This document shows positions 9,926-26,326 of a DNA stretch of 32,000 nucleotides, one piece after another (position 1 is the stretch's first letter; every line of letters begins with the position of its first letter). Under the pieces are notes generated by a model that worked only from the letters and a program-made list of their open reading frames with translations, was not told the origin of the DNA and made no database searches. The translations under genes were made by a program, and so were the position numbers. Source of the DNA: an uncultured Chloroflexia bacterium (GTDB lineage: Bacteria; Chloroflexota; Anaerolineae; Anaerolineales; Anaerolineaceae); the NCBI GenBank assembly GCA_963704755.1, contig OY969938.1:3300001-3332000 (forward strand). The letters are read 5' to 3'.

Positions 9926-9945
9926 AGGAAATATTTTAAAATACC

Positions 9946-10057
9946 GTAACTATTCAGGCTCCTGTTAAGAAGTTACCGAATATGAGGTGCGTGCGGGGGC
10001 AGCGCCCCCGCACGCACCTCATATTCGGATTTCTTCCCCGCCAGGCTGAGCAGTTAC
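9946..10057. mobile_element. 112-nt foldback MITE-like element, copy 1 (A-end left, B-end right)
   Basis: Termini GTAAC...GTTAC. Perfect 25-bp central stem 9976-10000 / 10004-10028 with loop AGC. Flanked by identical 8-mers AAAATACC (9938-9945 and 10058-10065). Confidence 0.7.
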
Positions 10058-10394
10058 AAAATACCGTCACCCAAACAGGAAAAAATCGAGTAAAGTTGTG
10101 CTATTCACACCTCAAGGTTACTCGAAAAGCCATGCCAGGGGTTGTGGCGCTTTTTCAAAACAAGACAAATTTTATGTCAACGAATTGCTCTGGAAAGCAA
10201 TTCAATAGCCGCTTTTTCGCTGAGATATTCCGGTTTGAGCGCTTTGCACATTGTCCTTAGCCTGTGACATGCCTTTGGTTGGCGAGGGTCTTGATTTTTC
10301 GGCGGTTTTCTGGGTTTGTCCTTATTCCACTGATGGACACAGCAAACAATAATCTCCTAAAAATTATTCAACTTTACACAAACGAGGGATATTA

Positions 10395-11783
10395 ATGAAT
10401 GAGGAAACAATTCACGGATTTAGGAAAAATTGGGTCCGCATAAACCCGACTTTTGTGTTTATCGTTTTGCTGTCTATTTTTGTTGCATATTCCGCTTATT
10501 TGGCATGTAATCTCCAGCGAGGCATCTTGCCGGATGAGACCGCCCATTTTGCCTTCTCTGAGCACTACTCGACGACCTGGGCCATCCCTAAAGACACTCC
10601 CGAGACGTATCAATATGGTTGGTACATCAAACAAAACCCTTTCTTGTATTATTGGGTAAATGGCCGGGCATTGAACGCCCTCAATTTGGTTGTACCAGGG
10701 GCGAGCGATTGGCAAAAATTGGTTTTCCTGCGTTTATTGAGCGTAATTTTTTCGGCAGGAACGGTGGTGTTTTGTTATCTCCTTTCCAAGGAAATAATCA
10801 GGCATAAGTGGTGGCAACTTTTACCTGTTTTTTTGCTTACCAATACATTGATGTTTGTTTTTCTATCCGCCGGGGTCAGTTATGACAATCTTGCCAATTT
10901 CTTTAGTTTCGTAGGGCTATATTTTCTCGTCAGAGTGATGAATGGGAAAGATTACCTTTCCAATAGCCTTGGGTGGATTCTGTTTATTTGCCTGGCTGCT
11001 TTGGTGAAATACCCGATATTGCCGCTTGCCTTGGGAATGGCGGTTGCCTGGATAATTTATACAGTATATAAAAGGTCATTCATTTTTCCTTTGAAAATCA
11101 ATAGCCCAAAACTAATTGTGCTGGGCTCGCTTACTGCCCTGGCGATTTTCGGAAATCTGGCAATATATGGCGTCAATCTTTTGACCTACCACTCCCTTAC
11201 ACCCGCCTGTACCGATTTATTAAGTAAGGAACAGTGCGAATTGAGCCCGTATGTGGCTCGCGATAATCAGATTGCACTAGATCATAAGATGAGTATCGTC
11301 GAGAGCGTCCAACGAGGATACCCTGATCCGGTTGAATACGTGATCTACTCCTGGGTTCCGAATATGCTCAATCGCATTTACGGGGTCCTTGCACATCTCA
11401 GTTATTTTCCTACCCACATCGTTACTTTTTATTACTTGTTATTGATTTGGTGGTTGTTACTACTCGTTCGCTATTGGAAGCAACCCTCGTTTGCAATCTA
11501 TAGTCTGCTGGGGATATTTTTGTTTTATTCTCTGGTATTGCTTTACATAAATTATTCTTCTGAGCTTTCTTATGGATTTAAACAAATTGCGATGCAAGGG
11601 AGGTATGTTTTCCCTGTCATTGGGGCAGCTTATGTCCTCGTAGGCTCTCTTTTTACAATCATAAAAAATCGAGGCCTCCGCTTGACCACATTGATTTTTA
11701 CCCTGGCGCTATTTTTCTATGGGGGGCCGATTAAGTTTATCGTCTTGCATAATACCGTCTTCAATGGCTGGTTTATTAAATAA
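10395..11783 (+). CDS. polytopic membrane protein, DUF2142/GT-C-like glycosyltransferase candidate
   Basis: 462 aa with more than 10 hydrophobic segments and an early extracytoplasmic LPDETAHF motif, as in GT-C/DUF2142 proteins. Located in the glycan locus. Confidence 0.6.
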   Translation: MNEETIHGFRKNWVRINPTFVFIVLLSIFVAYSAYLACNLQRGILPDETAHFAFSEHYSTTWAIPKDTPETYQYGWYIKQNPFLYYWVNGRALNALNLVVPGASDWQKLVFLRLLSVIFSAGTVVFCYLLSKEIIRHKWWQLLPVFLLTNTLMFVFLSAGVSYDNLANFFSFVGLYFLVRVMNGKDYLSNSLGWILFICLAALVKYPILPLALGMAVAWIIYTVYKRSFIFPLKINSPKLIVLGSLTALAIFGNLAIYGVNLLTYHSLTPACTDLLSKEQCELSPYVARDNQIALDHKMSIVESVQRGYPDPVEYVIYSWVPNMLNRIYGVLAHLSYFPTHIVTFYYLLLIWWLLLLVRYWKQPSFAIYSLLGIFLFYSLVLLYINYSSELSYGFKQIAMQGRYVFPVIGAAYVLVGSLFTIIKNRGLRLTTLIFTLALFFYGGPIKFIVLHNTVFNGWFIK

Positions 11784-11933
11784 GTCATGGCAGCCCAACT
11801 TTTTGGCGGTTAATAATTCATATTCTGATATCCATTGACGCCATGCACTGATTCCGTCCGTTTCTCGACGGACAGGCCGGTCGGGCATAAGGTGTCCCAA
11901 GCGCAACTTTCCCCTCGATAGGCGTCAGGCATT

Positions 11934-12257
11934 TTACGGCATAGGCTTGCCGCGGATGCCCGCATCCAGTTCATAGAGGAGCCTGTCCAGGCGGCTTTTC
12001 CCAGCCTGGCGAGTGGGCATCTGCAGCGGGATTGCGCGCACCTCCGCGGGAACGTGTTGGAGCGTCCAGTAGACCTCGCCAGTGGTGATATTCGTATAGC
12101 CGGCTTGCTCGATCTTGAGAGCCAGGGCCGCCAGGGTGACCCCGGCGATGATCTCCATGGGAACCTGCGACCGGTCGATCGGAAGGATTCCGGCCATAAA
12201 GTTAAGGCTGTGGGGCGAATTCTTCTGCACAGCAGGCGTTGCGTTGAAATCCTTCAT
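11934..12257 (-). pseudogene. truncated paralog (C-terminal ~75 aa) of the 13697..14236 gene
   Basis: ...ALALKIEQAGYTNITTGEVYWTLQHVPAEVRAIPLQMPTRQAGKSRLDRLLYELDAGIRG aligns to the C-terminus of the 179-aa protein. The N-terminal 30 aa are unrelated and there is no SD before the ATG. Confidence 0.55.
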
Positions 12258-12526
12258 ATAAACTAATATACAGTGCTTTTGCCCTTTTTTTCAACGACTT
12301 CTGCTGGCAAGCGAAATTTCCCCCGGCGCTGAAGCGTGGCCCCGGCCGAGAATTGCTTAAGAGCGGCCGGCCGACGCGTTAAACGCTTCGCCGTGAACAT
12401 CCCTGCTGCGGTTTTCTTGACCCCCTCAGGGCAGGCTGCATCTCTATGCTGAAATATCGCGGCGATATCGATTGTGGTGAGCGGATAAAAGTGGTGCGGC
12501 CAAAGCTGGCCTATAGCGCCCGCCGG

Positions 12527-13387
12527 TTAGCGGTAGAGGTTATCGAACACAGCCTGCGGGGCGGCGGCCAGGCCGATGACCGTGGGGCCGGCGTGCGCGC
12601 CCAGGACCAGGGTGACCGTCACCAGTTGGTCCTCGACTGCGTTGAGCATCTCATGGACGGTTTCGCGCAGCATTTCTACCCCCGGCAGGTTGCTGCCATG
12701 CATTAGTTGGATGCGCAGTTTCTGATCGCCGAAATGCTCGTGTACTTTGCTGACCATCTTGCGGACCGCGCGCGAGACGGTCATTTCCTGGCCTACGTTG
12801 TAGTAGCGGCCGTCTTCCTCGTTCATGCCGATGATCGGTTTGATTTTGAGGATCGAGCCGAAGATGCTTTTCAAGTGGTTGATCCGCCCGCTGTGAATGA
12901 GGTATTTGAGGTCGCTGAAGGAAACCATGGTGTTGGTATTGTTTTTTACCTGCTGCATGGCTGCGAGGATGCGCTCTTTGTTCCAACCCGATTTGTTGCC
13001 GCGTGCGGCTACTTCCACCATCCAACCCAGGGCCGGCCCGACGGTATACGAATCGACGACGGTGATATGGGGATTGGCGACGATGCGGGCAGCATGTTCG
13101 GCGGAGGAGTACGAGCCGCTCAGGCCGGAGGACAAATGGACCGAAAGGATCTCCTCCTGGCCGCACTTCTCGAACACGTTGACATAATCACCCACGGATG
13201 GCTGCGATGTAGAGACGAATTCGTTGGGATTTTCGAGGTACATACGATACAGGTCTTCAGGGAGAATATCAATTCCATCCTTATAGGTCTTGCCCATAAA
13301 CGTAACCTGGAAAGGCACTACTTCTACACCTAAATTGGCCGCTTTTTCAACGGATAGGTTTGCCGCAGCATCAGTAACTACTCTCAT
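12527..13387 (-). CDS. DegV family fatty-acid-binding protein
   Basis: 286 aa: MRVVTDAAANL...TSQPSVGDY...LSVHLSSGLSGSYSSA, typical DegV blocks. AAGGA SD 9 nt upstream. Confidence 0.85.
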   Translation of the reverse strand: MRVVTDAAANLSVEKAANLGVEVVPFQVTFMGKTYKDGIDILPEDLYRMYLENPNEFVSTSQPSVGDYVNVFEKCGQEEILSVHLSSGLSGSYSSAEHAARIVANPHITVVDSYTVGPALGWMVEVAARGNKSGWNKERILAAMQQVKNNTNTMVSFSDLKYLIHSGRINHLKSIFGSILKIKPIIGMNEEDGRYYNVGQEMTVSRAVRKMVSKVHEHFGDQKLRIQLMHGSNLPGVEMLRETVHEMLNAVEDQLVTVTLVLGAHAGPTVIGLAAAPQAVFDNLYR

Positions 13388-13404
13388 TCAATTATTCCTT
13401 TTTG

Positions 13405-13516
13405 GTAACCTTACAGGCCAGTTCGGGCACGATGTGTGTTTTTGTGGGTTTTCGCGCGGCGAAACCCGTGAAAAGCAACAAAAACACACTACCTTCCAAG
13501 GTGGCTGACCAGTTAC
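13405..13516. mobile_element. 112-nt foldback MITE-like element, copy 2 (A-end left)
   Basis: GTAAC...GTTAC termini. 12-bp stem 13434-13445 / 13478-13489 enclosing a nested GGGTTTTCGC/GCGAAACCC hairpin. Flanking 8-mers CCTTTTTG / CTTTTTTG (7/8). Confidence 0.65.
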
Positions 13517-13696
13517 CTTTTTTGTTTTATTCTCGACAGGGGGGATAGATGGAAATTTCCAATGGGTGATAAACAAATCATCGACTGGATTGTGACACTG
13601 AATGATGCCAAGATTAAATTGTATATATATTGTACCATTTAGGGAAGAAATATCTGTCTGGTACGGGGTTCTAATAATATGCTAATGCCCCCGGCT

Positions 13697-14236
13697 CTAC
13701 ACCTGGCCGCGGATGCCCGCATCCAGTTCATAGAGGAGCCTGTCCAGGCGGCTTTTCCCCGCCGGACGAGCGGGCATGTGCAGCAAGACCTCGCGCGCTT
13801 CGGCGGGGACGTGTGCGATTGCCCAATGGATCTCACGATCGGCGATGTCTGCATCGCCGGCCTGGTCGAGCTCGAGCGCCAGGGCGGCGTAAGCCGCCGG
13901 GCCGAGGATATGCTTGGTCTGGTTGACGTTCGCCAGGGGGTGCGTGTAGGCGGACGAAGCGGCCAGGCCGGCGGCGCGAGCGGCCGCTGAGGCAGCTGGG
14001 TCGCCAGCTTCACGGGCAGCAGCCATGGCTGCCAGGGCCAGGGTGCGCAACTGGGCCGTGCGCTTACCTCCGGCGGCAAACACGCGGATGCCTTCGATCG
14101 CCGCGCGGGGCCGGGTATCGGAACCGGGGTACTTCTCGAACACCGGCAAAGCCCTTTCGGCGCAGTCCGCGGCCCAGCCTCCCAGGGCCTGGAGCGACTC
14201 CATACTCAATGGGAAATATTGGGGCTCATTGCTCAT
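13697..14236 (-). CDS. conserved all-helical protein (family I recall as 'putative immunity protein', often mis-annotated SbcC)
   Basis: 179 aa: WAADCAERALPVFEKYPGSDTRPRAAIEGIRVFAAGGKRTAQLR...AARAAGLAASSAYTHPLA...KHILGPAAYAALA. The functional name comes from memory only. Confidence 0.5.
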   Translation of the reverse strand: MSNEPQYFPLSMESLQALGGWAADCAERALPVFEKYPGSDTRPRAAIEGIRVFAAGGKRTAQLRTLALAAMAAAREAGDPAASAAARAAGLAASSAYTHPLANVNQTKHILGPAAYAALALELDQAGDADIADREIHWAIAHVPAEAREVLLHMPARPAGKSRLDRLLYELDAGIRGQV

Positions 14237-14322
14237 CTTCCATTACCTTCTACCATATTTAGTTTGTGGTACCCAATGCGCCGGCGGCGTGCGCATGACG
14301 ATCCGCGCTAGAGTGTTCGGCT

Positions 14323-15000
14323 TCAGGCTGGTTTGCCGGTCAGGTCCTTGTCTTCCATTTCCCAGGCGTGATCGAGGGTGTGATAGGCGGTGTGGCGGAT
14401 CAGGTAGCGCAGTGGCCAGGTGCGGGCCATTTTGCCCTGGGCATGCAACGCCCGAATGGCGTCGCAATAGGCGCCGCGGAAGGCGTTCAATCCCTCGGCG
14501 GTCAGCAGGGTGTCGAAAGGCGTGAGCAGGCCGAGCTTCTTGGCCCAATCCAGCTCGGTAGCCAACACATGGCGGACGATGCGGTCGCGGTCCCGCCCGC
14601 CGCCGCGCGGACCGCGCTGCAGCTCGGCCGATACGCGCGCCCGCACCGTATCGAAAAACGACCAGCCGGCCCGCATCAAAGCCAGTTCGCGCTCCAGGGC
14701 TTCGTCTGACATAATTTGGTTGTCTATGCTCGAAAACGCGAACGAGATACCCCAGAAGTCGGTCGAGCCCGTGCCCGGGTAGCGCTCGACCACGTCCGCG
14801 GCGCTGGGGTTTGCAAAGGCAGCCTCCAGCCCGGCCAGCCTGGCCACCATTGCATAGCGCGGGACGTAGGCGAGCAAGCGTTCGAGCGCCGCCGCCTCGG
14901 TCGAGCCGCCGCGCTCGAGGCCGGGCCAGTCCGGCGCCACCGCCACCACCTTCTTGCCCCTCGGCCCAATTTCCAAGGTCACCCGCATCGGATTGGTCAT
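14323..15000 (-). CDS. hypothetical protein with DinB-like C-terminal His motif
   Basis: Start moved to ATG 15000 (MTNPMRVTLEIG), which has GGAG 7 nt upstream. C-terminus RHTAYHTLDHAWEME resembles DinB-type four-helix-bundle proteins. The coding call is more certain than the function. Confidence 0.5.
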   Translation of the reverse strand: MTNPMRVTLEIGPRGKKVVAVAPDWPGLERGGSTEAAALERLLAYVPRYAMVARLAGLEAAFANPSAADVVERYPGTGSTDFWGISFAFSSIDNQIMSDEALERELALMRAGWSFFDTVRARVSAELQRGPRGGGRDRDRIVRHVLATELDWAKKLGLLTPFDTLLTAEGLNAFRGAYCDAIRALHAQGKMARTWPLRYLIRHTAYHTLDHAWEMEDKDLTGKPA

Positions 15001-15189
15001 GGCTGCTCCTCTCTCTGTCAGAGGGTAATTGTATACTACAAAGCGATGGGATTCAAAATGGGAATTGGAGAGGAGGGGGTTTAAATTTGATTGAAACACA
15101 ACCTATTAAATGGTAAATCAAATTCCACATCTTGCGGAAATCCAGTATGTAAGGCGCGGTCCGGTTTTGACCGCACCGTTTTTCGAGTT

Positions 15190-15849
15190 TCATGGGTTCA
15201 GCGGTATCTCTGTTTTGGCATGCAGAAAACTATTTTCGTCGCCGATAATGATGGCGGACAGGGGGCCAATGCCTTCGTTTATTACCAGGCCCGGTTTGGA
15301 TACGTCCTGCGGCAGGTCAAAGGCCACCGTGCGGCTGGCGATCTCGCCGGGTTCGACGGGTTGGCTCCACAATTGGCTAGCGGTGACCACCTCACCGACG
15401 GGGAGGTTGAGCTCACCCCCAGCGTTCAGAGCCACCCTATAAGATTTTCCAGCGGCATCCATGATAAACAGGTCGGGCTGGGAAGGGATCTGGGCGGTGC
15501 GTTTGGCGTTGCTACGCAATTGTACCGTGAGGATGTAAAAATTGCCTTTGGCAGTAAGTTGGTGAGGGGCTGTTCCCAGTGTATGGGCGACCGAGAGCGT
15601 TTTGACCGAATAACACATTTCGTCGAAACAGCGCTCCTGGCCCGGATTCAGGTAGTGGGTCTGGCTGAAAACCGAAAAACCCAGAAGGAGAAGCGTATAA
15701 ACCGCCAGCCAGCCCAACAAAAAACGGGCGACCTTCCAGGCCCGGCCCGCGTGACGGGTCGCCAGAGCAACCAGCAACAGGATGGCCCCAATCAACAGGG
15801 CCAGGATGGTGCCAAAAAAAGCGAGAATACCCAATAAACCTTCTAGCAT
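15190..15849 (-). CDS. membrane-anchored DUF4352-like protein
   Basis: Two N-terminal TM helices, then a beta-rich domain (GNFYILTVQLRSN...LFIMDAAGKSY...EPGEIASRTVAFDLP) with a DUF4352-like pattern. Its ATG overlaps the PadR stop (ATGCTAG). Confidence 0.6.
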   Translation of the reverse strand: MLEGLLGILAFFGTILALLIGAILLLVALATRHAGRAWKVARFLLGWLAVYTLLLLGFSVFSQTHYLNPGQERCFDEMCYSVKTLSVAHTLGTAPHQLTAKGNFYILTVQLRSNAKRTAQIPSQPDLFIMDAAGKSYRVALNAGGELNLPVGEVVTASQLWSQPVEPGEIASRTVAFDLPQDVSKPGLVINEGIGPLSAIIIGDENSFLHAKTEIPLNP

Positions 15850-16188
15850 GAATCATTTTCCTTATCAGATGGACAGGATCGCATCCACTGCCCTGGCAAA
15901 TTTATGCCATACCTCCTGCCGCCGTACCCGGGCAGGGTCTGTTGGCCTTTGTGAGTCAGGCGGTAGATGTGTTTGCGCCGTTTAGGATGCTTCGGCCCAT
16001 TCGCCAGGCAGCAGGCCATCGTTTTCCAGGCGGTGCAGGGCGGGGTAGCTTGTGCCTTCCGGCAGATCGAAGGCGCCAGTGCTGTGGCGGCGCAGAGACG
16101 CATAACCATGCAGCGGGTCGTTTTGCAAAACGGCCAGCGGTAGTAAATCGAGGTGCCCTTTGAGTGCTGCGCCAAGCATACCTAGCAT
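15843..16188 (-). pseudogene. PadR family transcriptional regulator with an internal frameshift
   Basis: N-terminal part KGHLDLLPLAVLQNDPLHGYA...EGTSYPALHRLENDGLLPGEWAEAS* stops at 15984-15982. The C-terminal part KRRKHIYRLTHKGQQTL continues in another frame to the stop at 15845-15843. Confidence 0.7.
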
Positions 16189-16216
16189 TATAATACATAG
16201 TATTGCTATGTGTCAA
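16177..16216 (-). promoter_or_regulatory. candidate PadR promoter (TTGACA-18-TATAAT) with an embedded palindrome, possibly leaderless
   Basis: Minus strand reads TTGACA CATAGCAATACTATGTAT TATAAT GCTAGGT ATG. The palindrome ACATAG-N5-CTATGT (16195-16211) lies in the spacer. The -10 overlaps the first ATG (16188), and the second ATG (16179) lies 7 nt after the -10. Confidence 0.4.
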
Positions 16217-16262
16217 GCCGTACGAATTGCCTCACAATTAATCTTACTTTGCGAAATAACGT

Positions 16263-17511
16263 TGGCTCAAAATAAATGTTACCCTAACGCGGAATAAAGC
16301 ACCGCAGAGGGAGCTCATGATGAGTCAACGCAGTCGGCGGGAGATGCTAGAAAGCATTCGTCCGCGCTATTTGAAAGCCAGGAAAGCCGAGAAGAAACAG
16401 ATTCTGGATGAATTTATCGCCACAAGCGGATATCATCGTAAATACGCTATTCGGCTGTTGAAGCATGGTTCCAAGCCAAAGGGGTTGAAGAAAGCCGGGC
16501 GACGGAAGAAATACAACGGGGAAGTCGTCGTGGCTCTGGAAAAGATTTGGGAAGTTAGTGGGTGCATCTGCTCAAAACGACTACAGCCTTTTATTCCTGA
16601 AATGGTGGATGTTTTAGAGCGCTGGCAGGAAATAGAGTTGAGCGAGGAAACCAAAGCGCTTTTGTTGAGCTTGAGCCGGGCCACCATAGATCGCTGTTTG
16701 AAAAAGGCACGCCTCGCCCCCACCCCACGTGGGCTTGGGACTACCAAACCGGGCAGTTTGCTCAAACAAGCCATTCCCATCCGCACCTTTACCCCTTGGG
16801 AGGACGAGAAGCCAGGCTTTCTGGAAATCGACCTGGTGGCCCATTGTGGTACAACCACCGAGGGTACCTACCTCAATACCCTCACTGCAACCGATTTAGC
16901 CACCGGCTGGACCGAGTGCCTGGGCCTGGCCAACAAAACCCAGACAGCTGTCTCTCAAGCCATTGAGGAATTGCGCCATAACCTGCCTTTTCCTCTTTTG
17001 GGATTGGATTCAGACAATGGCAGTGAATTCATCAACGATACACTTTTGCGATACTGCCAGAGCGAACTCATTACCTTTACGCGTTCGCGGCCTTACCACA
17101 AGAATGATCAGGCTCATGTGGAACAGAAGAATTGGTCGGTTGTTCGACATACCATTGGCTATGACCGCTTCGAAACCCCACAAGAACTTGCCTTGCTCAA
17201 ATCCATTTACTCCGATTTGCGTCTTTACATCAATTTTTTCCAGCCAGTTCTCAAACTGATTGCTAAAGAAACCGTTGACGGCAAGACGATCCGTAAGTAT
17301 GATCTGGCCAAGACCCCCTATCGCCGGGTCTTAGCCCAGGACTCTCTTCCCCTGAAAGTCAAGGCCAGTCTTACTGCCCAATATGTTCATCTGAACCCTG
17401 TGTCCTTACAGGCCAGTATCAATAAAAAGGTCAATCAATTGTTAAGAATTCTCCGGTAACATTTCTATTTGAGGCAACGATTATCCCAAAGTAACATTTT
17501 ATTTTGAGGCA
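16263..17511 (+). mobile_element. insertion sequence with a single rve-type DDE transposase
   Basis: Terminal inverted repeats TGGCTCAAAATAAATGTTAC (16263-16282) and GTAACATTTTATTTTGAGGCA (17491-17511). No clear target-site duplication. Family uncertain (ISNCY/IS481-like from memory). Confidence 0.65.
16317..17459 (+). CDS. DDE-type integrase/transposase (rve domain)
   Basis: 380 aa with an N-terminal HTH-like region (ILDEFIATSGYHRKYAIRLL). Candidate catalytic residues are in EIDLVAH, LDSDNGSEF and NDQAHVEQKN. Confidence 0.85.
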   Translation: MMSQRSRREMLESIRPRYLKARKAEKKQILDEFIATSGYHRKYAIRLLKHGSKPKGLKKAGRRKKYNGEVVVALEKIWEVSGCICSKRLQPFIPEMVDVLERWQEIELSEETKALLLSLSRATIDRCLKKARLAPTPRGLGTTKPGSLLKQAIPIRTFTPWEDEKPGFLEIDLVAHCGTTTEGTYLNTLTATDLATGWTECLGLANKTQTAVSQAIEELRHNLPFPLLGLDSDNGSEFINDTLLRYCQSELITFTRSRPYHKNDQAHVEQKNWSVVRHTIGYDRFETPQELALLKSIYSDLRLYINFFQPVLKLIAKETVDGKTIRKYDLAKTPYRRVLAQDSLPLKVKASLTAQYVHLNPVSLQASINKKVNQLLRILR

Positions 17512-17698
17512 CCACGGCCGTATCCCTTGAACCATGTAATTGCCAAAAGTGTTTTTGAATCGGCCCTGAATTCGGCAAAGAAAAATAATATTTTTGTTGT
17601 TGATTGATCGTAAGTTATTTGCCCCCCGAATTTAGGCTGGCCACGATCTGGAGCCGGAGCACACCATATTCCTCTCTGAGAACTATGGTGTGCTCCGG

Positions 17699-18330
17699 GG
17701 TTAGTTGTTTTTTTCGTAAAAGTCGCGTCCTAACGGTGCGTTCCGGGCACGCCGGTGTGGGCCAGTGGCCTGGTTATTCAACCATTTCCAGGATGGCAGC
17801 CCTAAAACGCACCCTACGCCGAGGTGGTTTTTAAGAAAATCTTCTTTGCGTCCTCTGCGTCTCAGCGGTGCAATATCTGGCTGCGTATAAGAGCGGCCTC
17901 GGTCTGGAGACCGGGCCGAACGCTTAAGGCGATTTTCCTTGATGAACCATCTTCTCTTTTAAGGTTTTCTCTGTGAACTCCGTGACTCTGTGGTTAGTTG
18001 TTTATTTTTGTAAAAGTCGCGTCCTAACGGTGCGTTCCGGGCACGCCGGTGTGGGCCAGTTGCCTGGTGATTCAACCATTTTCAGGATGGCAGCCCTAAA
18101 ACGCACCCTACGCCGAGGTGCTTTTTAAGAAAATCTTCTCTACGCTCCCCACGCCCTGGCGGGCGGTGCCATGGTCTGCGCCTCAGCGGTGCCAAATCTG
18201 GCCAGCATTGAAGAGCGGCCTCGGCCGACGGTACGGAGGTGAGACCGGGCCGAACGCTTAATACTAAATTTTTTGATGATCCGTTTTTTAAGGTTTCCTC
18301 TGCGTGCTCTGCGTCTCAGCGGTGCAATTC
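17699..18330 (+). repeat. two tandem ~293-nt non-coding repeat units (17699-17991, 17992-~18330)
   Basis: A-segments 17699-17845 and 17992-18139 differ at about 6 of ~148 positions by manual alignment. Each unit also holds a GC-rich B hairpin (17889-17928, 18211-18260). Each unit also carries two copies of a TTTTTAAG...CTCTGCG..CTCAGCGGTG-like motif (four in total, some divergent). Confidence 0.8.
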
Positions 18331-18518
18331 TTTGTGGTTTTCTTTCTTGACAAAGTGCAAGATTACTTCTTGCTTACAGTAAGATAAAAATTATGCGGTT
18401 TGGACGCTTGTTCTCTTTATAAAATTGCCATCATCCGCATCGGGTGTGTCGGCATCTACAGGTTTTGAAGAGAGCTTACCGGCTGATTAGCGGTGTTTGC
18501 TTGTGGCCGGCAGGCGGC

Positions 18519-18785
18519 TTACCCAATTACAAGCGGGTTGAATAGAGCGTGAGGAACTCCAATCTTTGCCACAAAAGCGTCAGCATTGCCTGCAAAGGGG
18601 TTCAGCGGGCTGCCCCAGGTGAAGGCGCTGGCTCCGGCGATCGCGATATTCCCTGCGGCGTCCACCGCAACCCCGGCGGCGACTTCATCGTCGGCAGAGC
18701 CCAGGAATGTGTGCCATTGTAACGCGCCGTTGAAATTTCTCCGTCCTGGATGTTGTCGTGGCGACCGGCAGGAATGGGCCTGCTT
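18519..18785 (-). pseudogene. C-terminal remnant of an SBBP-type beta-propeller repeat protein
   Basis: Frame open 18785-18522 without a start. It reads ...NFNGALQWHTFLGSADDEVAAGVAVDAAGNIAIAGASAFTWGSPLNPFAGNADAFVAKI..., which resembles a single SBBP repeat. The upstream part of the frame looks like junk. Confidence 0.35.
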
Positions 18786-18930
18786 CAGTAAAATCGCCGT
18801 TCATCTCCTATTTTGACTGAAAGGAAGCGTGCAGAAAATACAGAAAAATGGAGACTTTCTCTGGTTAAGAACTTCGTATTTACGGGTGAGGAAGCATCCA
18901 TTGAGTAAGAGCCTAAATATAATTTGTTTA

Positions 18931-19042
18931 GTCACTGCTCAGCTATCCAGGGAAGGGGATGTTTTTATTGTTTTTCGCGTGCGAAGCACGCGAAAAACAA
19001 TAAAAACATCCCCTTCTTTCAACTGGCCGAAGTAGTTTTGAC
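18931..19042. mobile_element. 112-nt foldback MITE-like element, copy 3 (B-end left)
   Basis: GTCAC...GTTTTGAC termini. Perfect 31-bp stem 18952-18982 / 18986-19016 with loop GAA. Flanking 8-mers match only 5/8. Confidence 0.6.
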
Positions 19043-19120
19043 ATTGTCAAAGGAAGTCACTCGTCAAAATATTAGAGTTATGCCCATAATAGTAGTAACT
19101 CTAATATCTCGGAGGAGCGT

Positions 19121-19252
19121 ATGTTTGTCGATCGCCGGCAAGAGCTCGATTTTCTCAACAGCGTCCTCACGCGCAGCCGCTCGGGGCCAGCACAACTGGT
19201 GCTGATGTATGTCCGCCGTCACGGCACTGCCTCGCACATCAACCAGCGGTGA
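19121..19252 (+). pseudogene. N-terminal remnant of an AAA ATPase (archaeal-ATPase/DUF234-type)
   Basis: GGAGG SD then MFVDRRQELDFLNSVLTRSRSGPAQLVLMYVRRHGTASHINQR*. It resembles the FVGRE.EL..L......AQL..iyGRRRvGKT N-terminus, but the Walker A is degenerate and a stop follows after 43 aa. Confidence 0.4.
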
Positions 19253-19340
19253 CTGAGGACGGCCATCTTGCTCCAACAGGTTCTCGGATAGGCCTTGTTA
19301 TAATGATCGGAAACCAATATGGATTTTTAGGATTCTTCCC

Positions 19341-20021
19341 ATGCTTTCTATCCTTTTCGTCGAAGACGATGACACCATCGCTATGGGGGTGGAATACTCG
19401 CTCAAGCAGGACGGTTTCCAGGCCAGCCTGGCCCACCGCCTGGAGGAGGCGCGCGATCTGCTCAAGCGCCAGCCCTTCGACCTGGTGCTCTTGGACCTGG
19501 GATTGCCGGACGGCAGCGGCTATGAGCTGTGCAAAGAAATCCGCGCCGCCGGGAATACGCCCATCATCATCCTCTCTGCCCGCGACGAAGAGGCCAGCAT
19601 CGTCCTCGGCCTCGACCTGGGCGCGGACGACTATATCACCAAGCCCTTTCGCCTGCGCGAGCTGATCTCGCGCATGAAAGCCGTCTTGCGCCGCCGCGGG
19701 CCGGTCGAGACAGGCGACCGTACCCTCACTTGTGGGGACGTGACGGTTTTCGCCCAGCAGGCCAAGGTCTACAAGAACGGGCGCGAAGTGCTTTTGACCG
19801 CGCTGGAATACCGGCTGCTGCTCACGTTGATCCTCAACCAGGGCCGGGTGCTCACCCGCAGCCAGATTTTGGGCAGCATCTGGGATGTGGACGAAGATTT
19901 CGTCAACGACAACACCCTAACGGTCTACATCAAGCGCCTGCGCGAGAAGCTCGAGGACGACCCACAGAATCCGGCGCTGATCAAAACTGTACGCGGGTTG
20001 GGGTACCAGGTAGGCGATTGA
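19341..20021 (+). CDS. OmpR/PhoB-family response regulator
   Basis: Receiver domain (ILFVEDDD...DLVLLDLGLPDGSG) plus a winged-helix C-terminus (LTALEYRLLLTL...IKTVRGLGYQV). Confidence 0.9.
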   Translation: MLSILFVEDDDTIAMGVEYSLKQDGFQASLAHRLEEARDLLKRQPFDLVLLDLGLPDGSGYELCKEIRAAGNTPIIILSARDEEASIVLGLDLGADDYITKPFRLRELISRMKAVLRRRGPVETGDRTLTCGDVTVFAQQAKVYKNGREVLLTALEYRLLLTLILNQGRVLTRSQILGSIWDVDEDFVNDNTLTVYIKRLREKLEDDPQNPALIKTVRGLGYQVGD

Positions 20022-20022
20022 C

Positions 20023-21279
20023 ATGAAACAGCTCCTTCATTCAGAAGAACGAAAATTGTTTATCTCCACAATAACCCTGTCGCTGATCGCTCTCCTGGCG
20101 GCAGGGCTCCTCAGCCTGGCAGTGACGATATATACCAACCGGGCGGTCAAAGACACTTATGCAGGCATCGTCGGCACGGTGACGCAGCGCTACCCCCAGG
20201 CCGAGGCGCAGGTCGTGCAGGATCTGACTTCGCCGGACGCCGCCTCCATCAGCCTGGGAACCCAGGTATTGGAGAAATATGGCCTGGGCGATCAGATTGC
20301 GGTCGAAGATCCCGCGCTCGGCGGGGCGGATACCGGCGTTGCCGCCGGCCTGCTGGCGCGCCTGCTGCCGGTCGGACTGGCGCTGGTCGGGCTGATCTGC
20401 ACCGGGTTCGTTCTTTTGCTGGCGCGTTACCAGCGGGCAGTTTCGGCCCAGGTGGCAGGGCTTTCGGCCTACCTGCGCCAGATCGATGGCGGTGATTATG
20501 CGCTGGACGTACGCGATAACGGCGAGGGCAGCTTCAGCCTGTTGAAGAACGACCTGTATAAGGTCACCGTCCGGCTGCGTGAGCAGGCCGAATTGCTGCA
20601 AAAGGATAAAACCGCCTTATCCAACCTGATCGCCGACATCTCCCACCAGATCAAAACCCCGCTCACTTCGTTGGGCGTTTTGGCCGACCTGCTGGCCGAG
20701 GATCCCCCGGAGGCGGACCGGCGCGCGTTTGTCGAGCGCCTGCGCGCGCAGCTCGGGCGCATCCAATGGCTGGTGACGGCTTTGCTCAAGCTGGCCCGGC
20801 TGGATGCCGGCACCGCTGCTTTAAAAAGCGAACCGGTGGACCTGCGCCGGCTGATCGAACGGGCGCTGGAACCGCTGCAGATCCCACTCGAGATCAAGCG
20901 ACAGCGCCTCGAGGTGCACGGCGAGGCAGAGGCAAGTTTTACCGGCGACCTCAACTGGAGCGCCGAGGCGCTGACCAACGTGGTCAAGAACTGTGTCGAA
21001 CATACCCCCGAGGGCGGGAAGATCGAGATAACTTACAGCGCCAACGCCTTATACGCCGAGATCATCGTCAGCGACGATGGCGAGGGGATTGCGCGCCGGG
21101 ATATCCCTCACGTCTTCAACCGCTTGTATCGCGGTGAGAACGCCGGCGAGAACAGCGTCGGTATCGGGCTGGCGTTGGCCAAGTCCGTCTTCACCGCCCA
21201 GGGCGGGGATATCACCGTGCGCAGCGAGCCCGGAGTGGGGACGCGCTTCGAGATCCGCCTTTTCCGCGGGGTGGTTTAA
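20023..21279 (+). CDS. sensor histidine kinase (two TM segments, HisKA + HATPase_c)
   Basis: H-box ADISHQIKTPLTSL, N-box VVKNCVEHT, G-boxes DDGEGI and GIGLALAK. Starts 1 nt after the regulator stop. Confidence 0.9.
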   Translation: MKQLLHSEERKLFISTITLSLIALLAAGLLSLAVTIYTNRAVKDTYAGIVGTVTQRYPQAEAQVVQDLTSPDAASISLGTQVLEKYGLGDQIAVEDPALGGADTGVAAGLLARLLPVGLALVGLICTGFVLLLARYQRAVSAQVAGLSAYLRQIDGGDYALDVRDNGEGSFSLLKNDLYKVTVRLREQAELLQKDKTALSNLIADISHQIKTPLTSLGVLADLLAEDPPEADRRAFVERLRAQLGRIQWLVTALLKLARLDAGTAALKSEPVDLRRLIERALEPLQIPLEIKRQRLEVHGEAEASFTGDLNWSAEALTNVVKNCVEHTPEGGKIEITYSANALYAEIIVSDDGEGIARRDIPHVFNRLYRGENAGENSVGIGLALAKSVFTAQGGDITVRSEPGVGTRFEIRLFRGVV

Positions 21280-21350
21280 GGCATGGTTGTTTCTGTGAGC
21301 TTACAGGTATGGTCGGGGGTCATGTACAGGTATAAAAATGGAGGTCGAAT

Positions 21351-21923
21351 ATGGCTAACTTGATTTACATAGCGAACACCTCACTCGACGGGTACACCGA
21401 AGACAAGGATGGTAAGTTTGACTGGACAGGCCCAAGTGAGGAATTGTTCAAATTTATCACGGACATCGTAAGGACAACACGCACGCACCTCTATGGGCGG
21501 CGCATGTATGAGACCATGATGGTGTGGGAGACTGATCCCAATCTGGCCGCCGAGTCTCCGCCCATGCGTGATTTCGCGGAGACCTGGCAAGCGGCCAATA
21601 AAATCGTGTACTCCAGGACGTTGAAGACGATCTCCACTCGCAACACGCAGCTCGAGCAAAACTTTGATCCGCAAGCGATTCGCCAGCTTAAAGCAGCCAG
21701 CGATCATGACATCCTCATCGGGGGTCCCGAACTCGCCGCCCAGGCCTTCCAGGCCGGGTTGATCGACGAGTACCAACTGTTCCTTATCCCGATTCTCGTG
21801 GGCGGCGGCAAATCGGCACTGCCCGACAACCTGCGATTGGAGTTCGAACTTTTGGCGGAACACCGCTTTCGCAATGGTATAGTTTTCCTCCGGTATCGAA
21901 CAAAGCCGGAAAGAGCCGCCTGA
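21351..21923 (+). CDS. dihydrofolate reductase family protein (RibD C-terminal domain type)
   Basis: 190 aa: MANLIYIANTSLDGYTEDKDGKFDW...LYGRRMYE...ILIGGPELAAQAF..GLIDEYQLFLIPILVGGG. Confidence 0.75.
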   Translation: MANLIYIANTSLDGYTEDKDGKFDWTGPSEELFKFITDIVRTTRTHLYGRRMYETMMVWETDPNLAAESPPMRDFAETWQAANKIVYSRTLKTISTRNTQLEQNFDPQAIRQLKAASDHDILIGGPELAAQAFQAGLIDEYQLFLIPILVGGGKSALPDNLRLEFELLAEHRFRNGIVFLRYRTKPERAA

Positions 21924-22005
21924 CACACATCGTCAGGTGAATAAATTGTCACAATTATAGTCACCGCAGGGTCACTCGCCATCGGTATGCTTTGAATGTT
22001 GGTAA

Positions 22006-22117
22006 GTAACTGTTCAGCCAAATGGGTAAGAATCCTGGATTTGAGGTGTTTGCGGGGGCTTCGCTCCCGCAAACACCTCAAATCCAGGAACTTTTATACA
22101 GGAGCCTGAGAAGTTAC
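22006..22117. mobile_element. 112-nt foldback MITE-like element, copy 4 (B-end left, inverted relative to copy 1)
   Basis: GTAAC...GTTAC termini. 26-bp stem 22034-22059 / 22063-22088 with one G-T pair and loop TTC. Flanking 8-mers GTTGGTAA / ATTGGTAA (7/8). Confidence 0.7.
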
Positions 22118-22148
22118 ATTGGTAATTCATAAATCTTGGAGGCATATA

Positions 22149-22832
22149 GTGGAAATTCTCGAGGTGAATAACCTTTCGAAGGTTTACGGAAAAGGCGATA
22201 CGCAGATCAAGGCCCTGGATGACGTCAGCTTTAAAGTAGAAAAAGGCGAATTCGTTGCTATCGTCGGCCCTTCCGGCTCTGGTAAATCGACCTTGCTGCA
22301 CATCCTGGGCGGGGTGGATACGCCCAGTTCTGGCCAGGTGCTGGTAGATGGCACCGACATCTGCACTCTCGATCAGACCAAACTGGCCATCTTCCGCCGC
22401 CGGCAGATTGGCCTCATCTACCAGTTTTACAACCTGATCCCGATCCTCAACGTCGCGGAGAATATCACCCTGCCGCTGCTGCTGGACGGGCGCAGCCTGG
22501 ATGAGGCGCGTTTACAGGAACTCGTGACCACCCTGGGTTTGGCCGACCGGATCCAGCACTTGCCCAATCAGCTTTCCGGCGGGCAGCAGCAGCGCGTCTC
22601 CATCGGGCGGGCGCTGATCAATAACCCCGCCCTGGTCCTGGCCGACGAGCCCACCGGCAACCTGGACAGCGCCAACTCCAAGGATATCATGGCGCTGCTT
22701 AAACTTTCCAACCAGCGCTATCACCAAACGCTGATCATGGTGACCCACGATCATGACATCGCCCTGCAGGCCGACCGCATCATCTCCTTTAGCGACGGGT
22801 GCATCGAACGCGACGAGGCGGTACGGGCATGA
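22149..22832 (+). CDS. ABC transporter ATP-binding protein (MacB/LolD/FtsE type)
   Basis: GTG 22149 is preferred (TGGAGG 6 nt upstream; [14 protein letters not shown]). Walker [10 protein letters not shown], signature LSGGQQQRV, Walker B LVLADEPT. Confidence 0.9.
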
Positions 22833-25498
22833 ACATCCTGACCACGTATACCCTGAAGTACCTGCGCCTGAACAGGAAGCGCACCGCGGTGACCATCCTG
22901 GGGGTGGTCCTGTCCGCCGCCCTGATCTGCGGGGTGCTCCTGCTGGGGGGCAGCTTCCAGAAGGTGATGATCGACCACGAGATCTACATGTCGGGGAACT
23001 GGCACGCCCAGTTCCACGCCGTGCCCTACGAAAAGGCGAAATATATCACCGACAACAGCGCCGTCCAAACGGCGATGCTCAGCACATGGCTCGGAAACGC
23101 CACTTATGGCAGCCACAACACCGCCCGGCCTTACCTGTACGTCACCGCCTATGACGCGACTTCTTTCCAAAACTACCCCATCCGGCTGGTATCTGGACGC
23201 CTTCCCCAAAACGGGAATGAGCTGCTCGTTTCGCAGACGATGATTCGGGACTCTGGCTTGGACTTGAAACCTGGCGCTACCTTGCAACTGACGTTTGGCC
23301 AGCGAAATTTCCCCGACTACGATGGGCGCGTCAAGGCCTGGGGCGGAGAAGAGTACGTCGCTCTGCAAGATGGAGAAACCTTTACCCCGTCCGGTTCAAA
23401 AAACTACACAGTGGTCGGCGTGATGAAGTCTTCGTCCGATGAGACCAGCATGCCCGCGGATTTCCCGGCTTTCACATCCCTCGACCCGGCTCAATTGGCA
23501 GCCACAGACACAGTGGACATCGCCATCCTGGCCCGCGATCCACGCAGCATTTCCACCAGCGCGCCGGCGATGGCGAAGAGCGCCGGGTTGGAGGTGACCC
23601 CCGGCCCGGACGGCAAGCCTGAAAACATCACCTACAATGAGGACCTGCTGCCCTGGCTGGGCGCCAGCGGCCGTTCCAACTACGTGGCCTTCTTCCTGGC
23701 GACCATCGCCGTGGTTATCGCCCTGATCATGTGCGGCTCGGTATTGCTGATCTACAACGCTTTCGCCATCTCGATCGGCGAGCGCAAGAAGCAGTTCGGT
23801 ATGTTTGCCAGTGTGGGCGCCACCGCCGCGCAGATCCGCCGCATCGTGCTGACCGAAGCAGGAGTTATCGCGGCCATTGGCATCCCGCTGGGCATTCTGG
23901 GTGCCATCGCCGGGGTGGAGATCCTGGCGGCGCTCACCCAGGGGATCGTCTCTCAGTTGATCCTGGACGCGCAGCAGGGGCTGACGTTGGTGGCCTCGCC
24001 GTTGGTTTTCGGTGTGACCGTGCTGTTTTCCGCGGCGACCATCTTGCTCTCGGCCTGGATCCCCGCCCGGCGCGCTTCGCGGGTTTCGCCCATCGAGGCC
24101 ATCCGCCAGAGCGGCGAGATCCAGGAGGGCAAACCACACAATCTGCGCACCAGCCCGCTCATCCGGCGGGTGTTTGGGTTCGAGGGCGAGCTGGCGCTCA
24201 AATCCCTCCAGCGCGACCGCAAACGGTACCTGACCACCTTACTCTCGCTCATGATTAGCATCATCTTGTTCGTTGCCTTCAACGCGCTGATGCTGTATAC
24301 CAACACCACTACCAGCATGGCTAACAAAGCGATGAACTTCGACCTGATAATTTCCCTGGACTACCGCCAAAGCCACGCTCTGGATTTTGCCGACATGGCC
24401 AGCCAACTGCCAGAAGTGCAGAGGGTTGCCTATAGGCGCTGCACCTACGAGCAGTACGCCCCTCCCCGTGCGGTGATCACCGACCCGGCTAACCAGGCCC
24501 TGCAAGAGCTGAATAACCTTAAAATTGAAAATATCCCCTCCCCAGTAGCAGGCGGTACATACCAGTTTGTGCTTCAAGTGTGTGCAGTGGGGCCGTCCGA
24601 GTTTGCTCACTACGCCGCGCAGCTCGGTCTGGACCCCCAACAGTATTCCGATCCATCCGCGCCGCTGGGGATCCTGATCAACCACACCACCCTGCGCCAG
24701 GGTGGCAAGCTGTATGATTTCGACGTGTTCAACCTTAAGCCGGGCGATACGATGACTGTCTCCAAGATGTCTGGCTACTCCACCCCCCAAACTGGTAATG
24801 AAACACCGGCCAGCCTGACGTGGAGGGTGGGCGCGGTTACCCAAGAGTTCCCTTTGGGTTTTCTGGGGGCAACGCTGGTTCCGAATTTGATCGTCTCGGA
24901 CGCCGTCTTCGATGGTTTGAGCGACCAACTGTTGCAGTTAGGCCCGAGCAATCCCGGCGCCATGTACATCCAGAGCAGGACCCCGGACGCAGCTGTGGCA
25001 GCCCTCCAACGGCTCTACCAGGCTACGGTCGGGGGCGACTTCTCGTACAATTCGACGGCTGAGATGAATAAGAACCGAAACCTGCAGGCGCTGATGACCA
25101 ACCTGTTTTTTTACGGGTTCCTGGCGTTGATCACGCTGATCGGGGTGACCAACATCATCAACACCCTGGATTCCAACATCAAGCTGCGCCGGCGCGAGAT
25201 CGCCATGCTCAAATCCGTTGGGCTGACGCCGGGCGGCTTTCGGTCCATGCTGCGCTACGAGAGCCTGTTCTACGGGCTGACCGCGCTGCTGTATGGTCTT
25301 CCGCTGGGGATTGCTGTGAGCGTGGTCATCTACTTCCAGTTCGGCGGGGTGAGTAGCTTTTCCTTCAGCCTGCCCTGGGGAGCGATCGCGGCTTGCATCG
25401 CCGGCGTTCTGGCGATTGTCTTCACCACCATGATGATTTCGGGTGCGATGATTCGCAACGACAACATCGTAAATACGATCAAAGAAGAAAATTTGTAG
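22829..25498 (+). CDS. FtsX-family ABC permease with two FtsX modules and two large extracytoplasmic domains
   Basis: ATG 22829 overlaps the ATPase stop (ATGA). N-terminal [33 protein letters not shown], with FtsX-type helix bundles near aa 290-420 and 780-889. Confidence 0.85.
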   Translation: MNILTTYTLKYLRLNRKRTAVTILGVVLSAALICGVLLLGGSFQKVMIDHEIYMSGNWHAQFHAVPYEKAKYITDNSAVQTAMLSTWLGNATYGSHNTARPYLYVTAYDATSFQNYPIRLVSGRLPQNGNELLVSQTMIRDSGLDLKPGATLQLTFGQRNFPDYDGRVKAWGGEEYVALQDGETFTPSGSKNYTVVGVMKSSSDETSMPADFPAFTSLDPAQLAATDTVDIAILARDPRSISTSAPAMAKSAGLEVTPGPDGKPENITYNEDLLPWLGASGRSNYVAFFLATIAVVIALIMCGSVLLIYNAFAISIGERKKQFGMFASVGATAAQIRRIVLTEAGVIAAIGIPLGILGAIAGVEILAALTQGIVSQLILDAQQGLTLVASPLVFGVTVLFSAATILLSAWIPARRASRVSPIEAIRQSGEIQEGKPHNLRTSPLIRRVFGFEGELALKSLQRDRKRYLTTLLSLMISIILFVAFNALMLYTNTTTSMANKAMNFDLIISLDYRQSHALDFADMASQLPEVQRVAYRRCTYEQYAPPRAVITDPANQALQELNNLKIENIPSPVAGGTYQFVLQVCAVGPSEFAHYAAQLGLDPQQYSDPSAPLGILINHTTLRQGGKLYDFDVFNLKPGDTMTVSKMSGYSTPQTGNETPASLTWRVGAVTQEFPLGFLGATLVPNLIVSDAVFDGLSDQLLQLGPSNPGAMYIQSRTPDAAVAALQRLYQATVGGDFSYNSTAEMNKNRNLQALMTNLFFYGFLALITLIGVTNIINTLDSNIKLRRREIAMLKSVGLTPGGFRSMLRYESLFYGLTALLYGLPLGIAVSVVIYFQFGGVSSFSFSLPWGAIAACIAGVLAIVFTTMMISGAMIRNDNIVNTIKEENL

Positions 25499-25509
25499 AG
25501 GAAATCGGA

Positions 25510-25995
25510 ATGTCAAAGAAACTTTGTCTTATTCTGTCCGTGATGTTAACGGCTACTATGGTTCTCACCGCCTGCGCGCCCTCGCAGCGTAGCGAAGGGG
25601 GCACGCCTGTGGCACCGACCGCTGCGCCGGCTGTCACACAACCAACAACCGCTCCGGCTACCCTCATAGAGCCTTCGGCAACCACAGCAGCGGCTGCCAC
25701 AGAACCAACGACCGCTCCGGGTGAAATTCCCCAAAGCGGAGATCTCTGCGGTGGCACCGGCGGCAACGGACAGGTTATCCGTGTGGGAGACAATGAATTT
25801 ACAATGAAACGAAACGACGACGGCAGTGATCAGGTAGTCCACCTTTCGGGCCGGGCAACGATCAAAACTTCAGCAGGTACCGCATCGCTATCCGATTTAA
25901 AAATAGGATACGCGGTAACGCTCGTCGGAGGCCCAAATCCTGATGGCAGTTTTACCGCAGATACTGTCGTGGTCTGCAATGGAATTGTTCCATAA
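25510..25995 (+). CDS. lipoprotein with a Thr/Ala/Pro-rich linker and a small beta-rich C-terminal domain
   Basis: MSKKLCLILSVMLTATMVLTAC has a lipobox (LTAC). Start at ATG 25510, 11 nt after the permease stop. Function unknown. Confidence 0.65.
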   Translation: MSKKLCLILSVMLTATMVLTACAPSQRSEGGTPVAPTAAPAVTQPTTAPATLIEPSATTAAAATEPTTAPGEIPQSGDLCGGTGGNGQVIRVGDNEFTMKRNDDGSDQVVHLSGRATIKTSAGTASLSDLKIGYAVTLVGGPNPDGSFTADTVVVCNGIVP

Positions 25996-26058
25996 ACTCA
26001 GTCGGGGCAGTGAAACGGTTCTCATCCCGAAGCCCAGTCGGCGCTACCCTCAAGCCCA

Positions 26059-26268
26059 ATGAAGAACGTGGACGTCGCCGTCTACAACTACCTGAAGACG
26101 GTTGCTGATGGCTCTTTCCGGGCCGGCATTAGCACCGGCGCCTTGCAAAACGGCGGCGTCGGTCTGGCTCCCTTCTATGATTGGAACAGTGAGATCCCAA
26201 CCGATTTGAAAGCCCAGATCGAGAAGGCCAGTGACGGGATCAAGGATGGTTCCATAAAGACTCAGTGA
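26059..26268 (+). pseudogene. C-terminal remnant of a BMP-family (PnrA/Med-like) ABC substrate-binding lipoprotein
   Basis: MKNVDVAVYNYLKTVADGSFRAGISTGALQNGGVGLAPFYDW..IKDGSIK matches only the last ~70 aa of roughly 350-aa BMP proteins. No upstream continuation in frame. Confidence 0.5.
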
Positions 26269-26290
26269 AGTAAAATACCTGCTGATGATC

Positions 26291-26326
26291 GGGTGCTGTG
26301 CTCAACAGGGTACAGCACCCTTTTTT
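26291..26326 (+). terminator. rho-independent terminator
   Basis: GGGTGCTGT (26291-26299) pairs with ACAGCACCC (26312-26320), followed by TTTTTT. Confidence 0.6.

Follow-up and report, generated by a model that had tools for sequence, protein, structure and literature searches.

A probable mosaic of short extragenic repeat modules, doubled in tandem beside an insertion sequence in an uncultured Chloroflexia bacterium

In a window of 32,000 nt from the genome of an uncultured Chloroflexia bacterium (contig OY969938.1; all positions are those of this stretch), the region from 17699 to approximately 18335 probably represents short, non-coding extragenic repeat modules arranged as a mosaic and then doubled through local tandem duplication, rather than a dedicated pair of RNA genes. 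Each of its two units contains a module A, a GC-rich hairpin B, and copies of a short motif. The motif is an arm of a family found across phyla, the region is independent of the adjacent insertion sequence, and A carries no coding, Rfam, or folding signal. Three possibilities had been raised in an earlier note on this DNA, these being a pair of ncRNA genes, a composite of non-autonomous elements, and a satellite-like repeat. It is the composite, combined with local tandem duplication, that is favoured here, the third part of each unit being a member of a widespread short-repeat family. For the window, a false lead is removed in that the tandem units are not to be annotated as ncRNA genes. The link found between the arms and genes of the GxxExxY family is more interesting than the tandem repeat itself.

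The tandem units and their modules

Self-alignment of the window gives two head-to-tail units, at 17699-17991 and at 17992 to approximately 18335. Two tandem units of about 293 nt had been described previously; the duplication is real and unit 1 is 293 nt, but unit 2 is approximately 344 nt. An ungapped block of 143 nt (17708-17850 versus 18002-18144) has 94% identity at a spacing of 294 nt, and the matches that make up the array are not due to chance (0 in 100 shuffles). The modules follow one another in the order m0(doublet)-A-m1-B-m2-A-m3-B'-m4, with the solo arms all in one orientation.

17654-17698, plus strand: hairpin doublet m0, with 21-nt arms that are 90% complementary, a 3-nt loop, and then GGTTAGTTGTTTTTTT (z = -5.45)
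17699-17991, plus strand: unit 1, 293 nt, containing A1, m1, B1, and m2
17699-17848, unstranded: A copy 1, an orphan module with no homologue in the collections searched, no protein-family match, and an ordinary folding energy
17841-17873, plus strand: arm m1, CTTCTTTGCGTCCTCTGCGTCTCAGCGGTGCAA, with TTTTTAAGAAAAT 5′ of it (E = 2.4e-9 with the profile of metagenome copies)
17892-17924, plus strand: hairpin B1, GC-rich, AGCGGCCTCGGTCTGGAGACCGGGCCGAACGCT (-21.9 kcal/mol, z = -2.67)
17966-17994, plus strand: arm m2, TTTCTCTGTGAACTCCGTGACTCTGTGG, degenerate, at the unit junction, with 0 mismatches to the degenerate pattern (E = 0.44)
17992-18335, plus strand: unit 2, ~344 nt, containing A2, m3, B2, and m4, with insertions of 27 nt (18148-18174) and 12 nt (18229-18240)
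17992-18142, unstranded: A copy 2, with 5 substitutions and 1 indel relative to copy 1
18122-18195, plus strand: arm m3, with prefix TTTTTAAGAAAATCTTCT and core TCTGCGCCTCAGCGGTGCC (18175-18193; E = 6e-4)
18214-18258, plus strand: hairpin B2, with the stem of B1 and a loop 12 nt longer (z = -1.84)
18294-18327, plus strand: arm m4, TTTCCTCTGCGTGCTCTGCGTCTCAGCGGTGCAA (profile E = 2.9e-8)

The 16 nt directly 3′ of unit 2 (TTTGTGGTTTTCTTTC) are similar to the start of a unit. With two copies, approximately 16 nt of a third, and an A-block period of 294 nt, the array is a tandem repeat in the sense of at least two head-to-tail copies at a constant period. Two copies are, however, too few for the label 'satellite', and of the satellite-like repeat suggested before only the tandem arrangement with its constant A period is retained. 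The array was not reported by Tandem Repeats Finder, presumably because of the 45 gap columns between the units.

Between the units, A has 5 mismatches in 147 positions and 1 indel over approximately 148 columns (96.6% identity), which agrees with the segment of about 147 nt and about six differences that had been noted from the sequence. The rest of the unit has 33 mismatches in 141 positions and 45 gap columns (186 columns, ~77% identity). The divergence of A and of the remainder is therefore unequal (Fisher p = 3e-7), and a single simple duplication is insufficient to account for it. The higher identity of A between the units may reflect gene conversion after the duplication, a further copying of A at a later date, or selection on A.

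The B hairpin is present in both units, although the insertion in unit 2, reported as about 17 nt, is 12 nt (18229-18240). Likewise, the motif does occur four times, as had been described, but not as two equal copies per unit: m2 is degenerate, with CG changed to TG, and the prefix and core of m3 are split apart by a previously unlisted insertion of 27 nt. The flanks of m2 have two different relatives, the 5′ flank being homologous to the 5′ flank of m4 and the 3′ flank to the 3′ flank of m0; the right arm of m0, with its 3′ flank, can be aligned with m2 and the start of unit 2. The m0 hairpin, which the earlier note does not list and which has a T-run 3′ of it, is the sole strongly non-random fold of the area (0 of 200 shuffles fold equally well).

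The neighbouring insertion sequence

Upstream of the array is an insertion sequence (IS).

16223-17516, plus strand: IS481-like IS, which encodes an rve transposase (16317-17459), is bounded by ~56-nt inverted repeats, and has a target duplication of 6 bp (GCCGTA)

The similarity of its transposase to IS481 is weak, and thousands of relatives that are 75-80% identical to this transposase are present in Chloroflexota-rich metagenomes. The inverted repeats have two copies each of GTAACATTT(C/T)TATTTGAGGCA. The insertion point is approximately 35 nt upstream of a PadR-family gene, beside an ACAT-N9-ATGT palindrome. The repeat units had been placed next to the IS, which is correct as adjacency and no more, in that 182 nt separate the end of the IS (17516) from unit 1, and the repeat lies outside both the inverted repeats and the target duplication. 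On an ENA contig (L021), a copy of the IS that is 98.3% identical is present between unrelated genes with none of A, B, or the motif alongside; the repeat does not travel with this copy. Based on the clean 6-bp target duplication and the bare copy on the ENA contig, the repeat is not part of the IS and is independent of it. The stretch 14931-16251 is matched at 100% identity by a Logan contig that stops within the IS, and therefore the insertion is present in that sample too. The IS is also represented in ENA ERZ25039495, and run ERR11571143 contains the same strain.

Coding potential and copies elsewhere

The region had been called non-coding on the grounds that its only long frame, on the minus strand, is broken by a stop in unit 2. 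This stop is confirmed, but the frame is not the only long one, since, on the plus strand, A is crossed in each unit by an open frame (17604-17831 and 17946-18125); the call was right and the argument behind it incomplete. In the plus-strand frame, the substitutions in A are 5 non-synonymous and 0 synonymous. Pfam searches of all frames of the region gave nothing relevant at E <= 10, and a chimeric six-frame query, aimed at spurious ORFs over homologous DNA, had no match among 5.8 billion proteins. Based on an open frame in which all substitutions are replacements, and which has neither a Pfam nor a protein match, the region is non-coding.

A search for other copies of A, as had been proposed, found none in the genome, metagenome, viral, plasmid, and phage collections searched, from which B was absent as well. 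A scan of the genome collection with GGTGCGTTCCGGGCACGCCG gave 19 matches in high-GC genomes, none of which extends beyond the 20-21-mer, and these are therefore ascribed to chance. There were 0 matches to GGCAGCCCTAAAACGCACCC in JGI metagenomes and viral contigs, and blastn searches of plasmids and phages with A and B returned nothing relevant. Neither module is present in ~62 kb of related Anaerolineales DNA or in the 17 motif-bearing metagenome loci described below. Most of the proteins of the window have no exact record, and the lookup of the DUF4352 protein returned solely a 1.3-kb Logan contig that ends inside the IS. The response-regulator module at 19295-26023 is in other contexts in other Anaerolineales, and therefore there is no orthologous intergenic region in those genomes.

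A cross-phylum family of heptad arms

The arms m1 to m4 belong to a family of heptad arms that crosses phyla. Each arm has a T-rich lead, three CTCTGCG-like heptads 8-9 nt apart, and then GGTG(C/A)AA, with an approximate consensus of ttCCTCTGCGnnCTCTGCGnCTCnGCGGTG(C/A)AA. The family was collected by scanning metagenomes with the 20-mer TCTGCGYCTCAGCGGTGCMA, taken from m1 and m4, which gave 17 loci. In approximately 15 of the 17, one or two further CTCTGCG-like heptads and a T-rich lead are found 5′ of the 20-mer, outside the search pattern. The arm profile was made from these 20-mer-selected loci, so that its 3′ half derives from the window and only its upstream half is independent. Within the 32-kb window, the profile matches m1, m4, m3, and m2 only, and these have the T-rich lead, the two to three CTCNGYG heptads at a period of 8-9 nt, and the GGTG/GGTT end of the family.

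Arms were found in soil and sediment metagenomes, Gemmatimonadota, Cyanobacteria, and Bacteroidota, in both orientations. Hairpin doublets are present between genes in a Bryobacteraceae MAG (L018) and at three other loci (L031, L035, and L045), and that of L045 (2950-3036, on a Gemmatirosa megaplasmid) comes directly after a stop codon, between convergent genes. Tandem arrays of arms have periods of ~68 nt in L023 and ~118 nt in L032. The arm profile had no match in ~62 kb of related Anaerolineales DNA (L020, L021, and L039-L041), and therefore the family is not abundant in this lineage. No paper containing the motif strings was found in the open-access literature.

In pattern and profile scans of the window, no arm in the reverse orientation was found. 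The inverted partner that is characteristic of the family is thus missing here, and the sole doublet is the diverged m0 hairpin. The 3′ end of A was considered as a degenerate reverse arm pairing with m1 and was rejected (p = 0.17 and 0.35 versus shuffles).

Origin of the array

Tandem amplification is recurrent in the family (L023 and L032) and m2 appears to be a hybrid, and therefore unequal recombination or replication slippage is the most economical mechanism for the doubling. The direct arms flanking an ancestral A-m-B unit would have served as substrates for either process. The outcome would be the order m0-A-m1-B-m2-A-m3-B'-m4, in which m2 is a hybrid junction with an m4-like 5′ side and an m0-like 3′ side. 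If transcribed, the hairpins would be at most generic RNA stem-loops, as in REP elements. Several features count against a mosaic of extragenic modules: A is far better conserved between the units than the remainder, the arms in the window all point the same way and are without inverted partners, unlike most members of the family, no further arm is present in ~62 kb of related Anaerolineales DNA, and A and B are known as modules from this window alone.

Arms flanking GxxExxY genes

In two of the loci, inverted arms surround a GxxExxY gene, which in L032 (1950-3010) matches PF13366 (E = 6e-44) and TIGR04256 (E = 5e-45) and in L027 (192-642) is decayed. As an independent test, plasmids were searched using the GxxExxY protein, not the motif, and six of the eight matches were examined. 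The first four examined (L046-L049), selected by the gene, all have a reverse arm before the start codon and a forward arm after the stop codon; these armed plasmid loci are from Bacteroides, Bernardetia, Sphingomonas, and Gemmatirosa. The complementarity of the two arms of an element ranges from 24/28 to 28/31 in these four, and the heptads are lineage-specific yet matched within the element (CACAGAG/CTCTGTG, CGCGAAG/CTTCGCG, and CGCAGAG/CTCTGCG). The remaining two plasmid loci have a simpler inverted repeat (Treponema) and direct repeats (Prevotella). The cassettes are sited among co-oriented housekeeping genes (in the fabD-fabG interval, after radA, and after ade), and in the intact cassettes of L032 and L049 the forward arm is ~12 nt past the stop codon. 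As for the function of PF13366/GxxExxY, only 'function unknown' was found in the open-access literature.

It is conceivable, although the odds are against it, that the heptad arms serve as terminal repeats in an uncharacterised selfish cassette that has spread across phyla. Its autonomous form would carry the GxxExxY PD-(D/E)XK nuclease and its ORF-less forms would be the hairpin doublets and arrays, the array in the window being a landing pad or an ORF-less relic. Such an array could have formed through neighbouring insertions, with the cargo (A and B) captured or left behind, followed by amplification. The arms may act as DNA sites for the nuclease or for recombination, or as a long RNA stem that allows harmless residence in operons, as for rRNA intervening sequences. 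GxxExxY is a large protein family and, if its link to the arms reflects mobility or RNA processing, this would give it a testable function. The same link would explain intergenic hairpins that break assemblies and create spurious ORFs in many environmental genomes, and would supply a profile with which such repeats could be masked or annotated.

The array could also be a graveyard of decayed heptad-armed cassettes, in which A and B are relics of small genes, either GxxExxY or similar cargo, with their 3′ ends abutting the forward arms. Between the end of the plus-strand frame of A and m1 there are 12 nt, which is close to the ~12 nt from stop codon to arm in the intact cassettes, and the tail of this frame, G-x9-LKRTLRR, is loosely similar to the C-terminal G-x9-LKNGIRR of GxxExxY (tblastn E = 1.2). 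In addition, both unit-2 insertions (12 nt and 27 nt) have lengths divisible by three. This origin is nevertheless unlikely. No GxxExxY remnant was found in the window by tblastn, and the GxxExxY profile, at maximum sensitivity, found nothing in the six frames of 17500-18560, on which basis A and B are rejected as decayed GxxExxY genes. The results of the coding analysis also count against this origin, there being no relevant Pfam match in any frame at E <= 10, no match to the six-frame query among 5.8 billion proteins, and a change of amino acid at all five substitutions in the open frame.

RNA and regulatory alternatives

The pair of ncRNA genes suggested in the earlier note would be paralogous sRNA genes whose functional core is A and whose 3′ end is formed by the motif, the B hairpin, or both. 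The markedly better conservation of A than of the remainder of the unit would suit such genes, as would the stable B hairpin with a U-rich stretch some distance 3′ of it; the hairpin and T-run at 17654-17714 could shield the unit from upstream transcription. The whole unit also folds somewhat better than shuffled sequence (plus strand, z = -2.3; minus strand, z = -3.4), but the B hairpin (z = -2.7 and -1.8) accounts for these scores. Alone, A, which had been described as structured, folds like its shuffles on either strand (z = -0.8 to -1.45, with 16-42 of 200 shuffles folding equally well).

The nested complementary stretches that had been listed for A (GGTGCGTT/AACGCACC, GGGC/GCCC, and CCTGG/CCAGG) are all present in the minimum-energy fold, and the change from CCAGG to TCAGG does preserve pairing, as a G-U pair. 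When the five substitutions between the units are placed on the plus-strand fold of unit 1, four are in predicted pairs, of which two keep a wobble pair and two break the pair; none is compensatory. The Rfam covariance-model search that had been proposed gave 0 matches in the window at the gathering threshold. At E <= 10, no match overlaps A beyond chance, and there are only chance miRNA-like matches on the hairpin at 17654-17698; the 18 motif-bearing loci likewise gave 0 Rfam matches. A consensus scan found no promoter-like site on either strand of the array and one weak terminator-like match, inside m4 (18310-18326), where 2.7 are expected from shuffles. Considered with the lack of a homologue in the genome, metagenome, viral, plasmid, and phage searches, there is no positive evidence for A as a structured RNA, and a pair of sRNA genes is quite improbable.

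Other classes of element were considered and rejected. The differences between the A copies (C/T, G/T, T/G, C/T, and G/C) are not adenine-specific, whereas those between the template and variable repeats of a diversity-generating retroelement would be, and there is no reverse transcriptase among the ORFs scanned. For tRNA/tmRNA, retron, bridge RNA, and omega RNA, Rfam gave no match, and the scanned ORFs encode neither a reverse transcriptase nor IS110 or TnpB.

It is very improbable that the array is cis-regulatory DNA (an operator or binding-site array) for the divergent PadR/DUF4352 operon or another neighbour, since, although its position before the IS inserted was upstream of the minus-strand PadR gene and repeated heptads are typical targets of DNA-binding proteins, the same arms are found in unrelated gene contexts and phyla, the array begins more than 180 nt past the PadR-proximal palindrome, and A and B have no link to any regulator.

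Other features of the window

Near-perfect palindromes are present at 18952-19016, 9976-10028, 22033-22089, and 13434-13489, with arms of 31, 25, 27, and 23 nt, respectively. The arms are 87-100% complementary and the loops are 3 nt, except for that of 13434-13489 (10 nt). Inverted copies of a 112-nt sequence, at 9946-10057 and 22006-22117, are 75% identical, which suggests a second hairpin/MITE-like repeat family in this genome.

The module at 19295-26023, which contains a response regulator, a histidine kinase, an ABC ATPase, and an FtsX permease, has 84-88% nucleotide identity to other Anaerolineales contigs. Proteins with 94-96% identity to its regulator are present in many metagenomes, one labelled Bacteroidota among them. 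Compared with one of the Anaerolineales contigs (L039), the interval from the kinase to the ATPase contains two insertions, a RibD_C gene (21351-21923) and a hairpin repeat. These comparisons suggest a module that moves horizontally.

Two paralogous Imm5-like putative immunity genes are on the minus strand, 1.76 kb apart (11934-12257 and 13697-14236), and share a 215-nt stretch that is 75% identical. An intergenic sequence of 27-47 nt, GGAACTTATACCGATA..TTTAACGAATT, is present three times among unrelated genes (28258-28304, 29112-29138, and 29969-30015, spaced by 853 and 858 nt) and could represent a shared operator site or a further short repeat. An apparent gene relic is closer to the array, as a 93-codon open stretch on the minus strand (18519-18804) that has an ATG-led fragment upstream in another frame. 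Its candidacy as a relic of an SBBP beta-propeller (18519-18800) was unconfirmed by Pfam.

The window is a compositional mosaic, with a G+C content of 42-49% in 4001-12000, which holds a glycosyltransferase/ABC-2 cluster, and of 53-65% in 12001-28000; the IS and repeat region are at 47-52%.

Comparison with known repeat systems

As a probable mosaic of short extragenic modules, the array has its closest counterparts among the interspersed repeats of bacteria. The REP sequences, which form BIME clusters in enterobacteria, are palindromes, frequently with a GTAG head, and are associated with RAYT (HUH) transposases. The heptad arms are like REP/BIME and REPIN sequences in being an extragenic motif of ~35 nt that is found singly, as hairpin-forming inverted doublets, and in mosaic clusters with conserved linkers. 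They are also intergenic, near IS elements, and amplified in tandem (in L023, L032, and the window). They differ from REPs in having three direct heptads and not being self-palindromic, and the four arms in the window are direct rather than alternating. In addition, the only gene repeatedly found between heptad arms is GxxExxY, of the PD-(D/E)XK type, and no RAYT transposase is present among the 27 window ORFs scanned.

The pneumococcal BOX element (boxA-boxB(n)-boxC) is likewise a non-coding, three-segment modular composite with a variable number of tandem modules and hairpin potential. Its sequences are unrelated to those of the window, and its modules are dispersed in more than 100 copies per genome; for A and B, no copy is known beyond those of the array. 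The cyanobacterial STRRs share the seven-base periodicity, and heptad arms are present in cyanobacterial intergenic DNA (L043 and L044). However, STRRs are long, perfect, contiguous runs of heptamers, whereas an arm has two to three heptads, spacers of 1-2 nt, and a GGTG/GGTT end.

MITEs are ORF-less derivatives that share the terminal inverted repeats of an autonomous element. Similarly, heptad arms are found around a gene (L027, L032, and L046-L049) or around 20-175 nt of non-coding DNA (L031, L034, L035, and L045), and the arms of one element are ~85-95% complementary. Unlike MITEs, the heptad family has no known transposase or recognised target-site duplication, and the unit in the window has direct rather than inverted ends and no visible target duplication. 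The 23S rRNA intervening sequences have small ORFs, for four-helix-bundle S23p or GxxExxY proteins, flanked by inverted repeats that form a stem. The cassettes resemble them in having a small ORF from this protein family between inverted repeats, and in being inserted within transcription units with the neighbours left undisrupted. The cassette loci are, however, outside rRNA genes, and the window has arms without an ORF or an inverted partner. By analogy with these systems, the locus in the window may best be described as a BIME/BOX-type mosaic, and the arm family as a whole would be more like a pairing of autonomous element and MITE, or like the ORF-bearing 23S rRNA intervening sequences.
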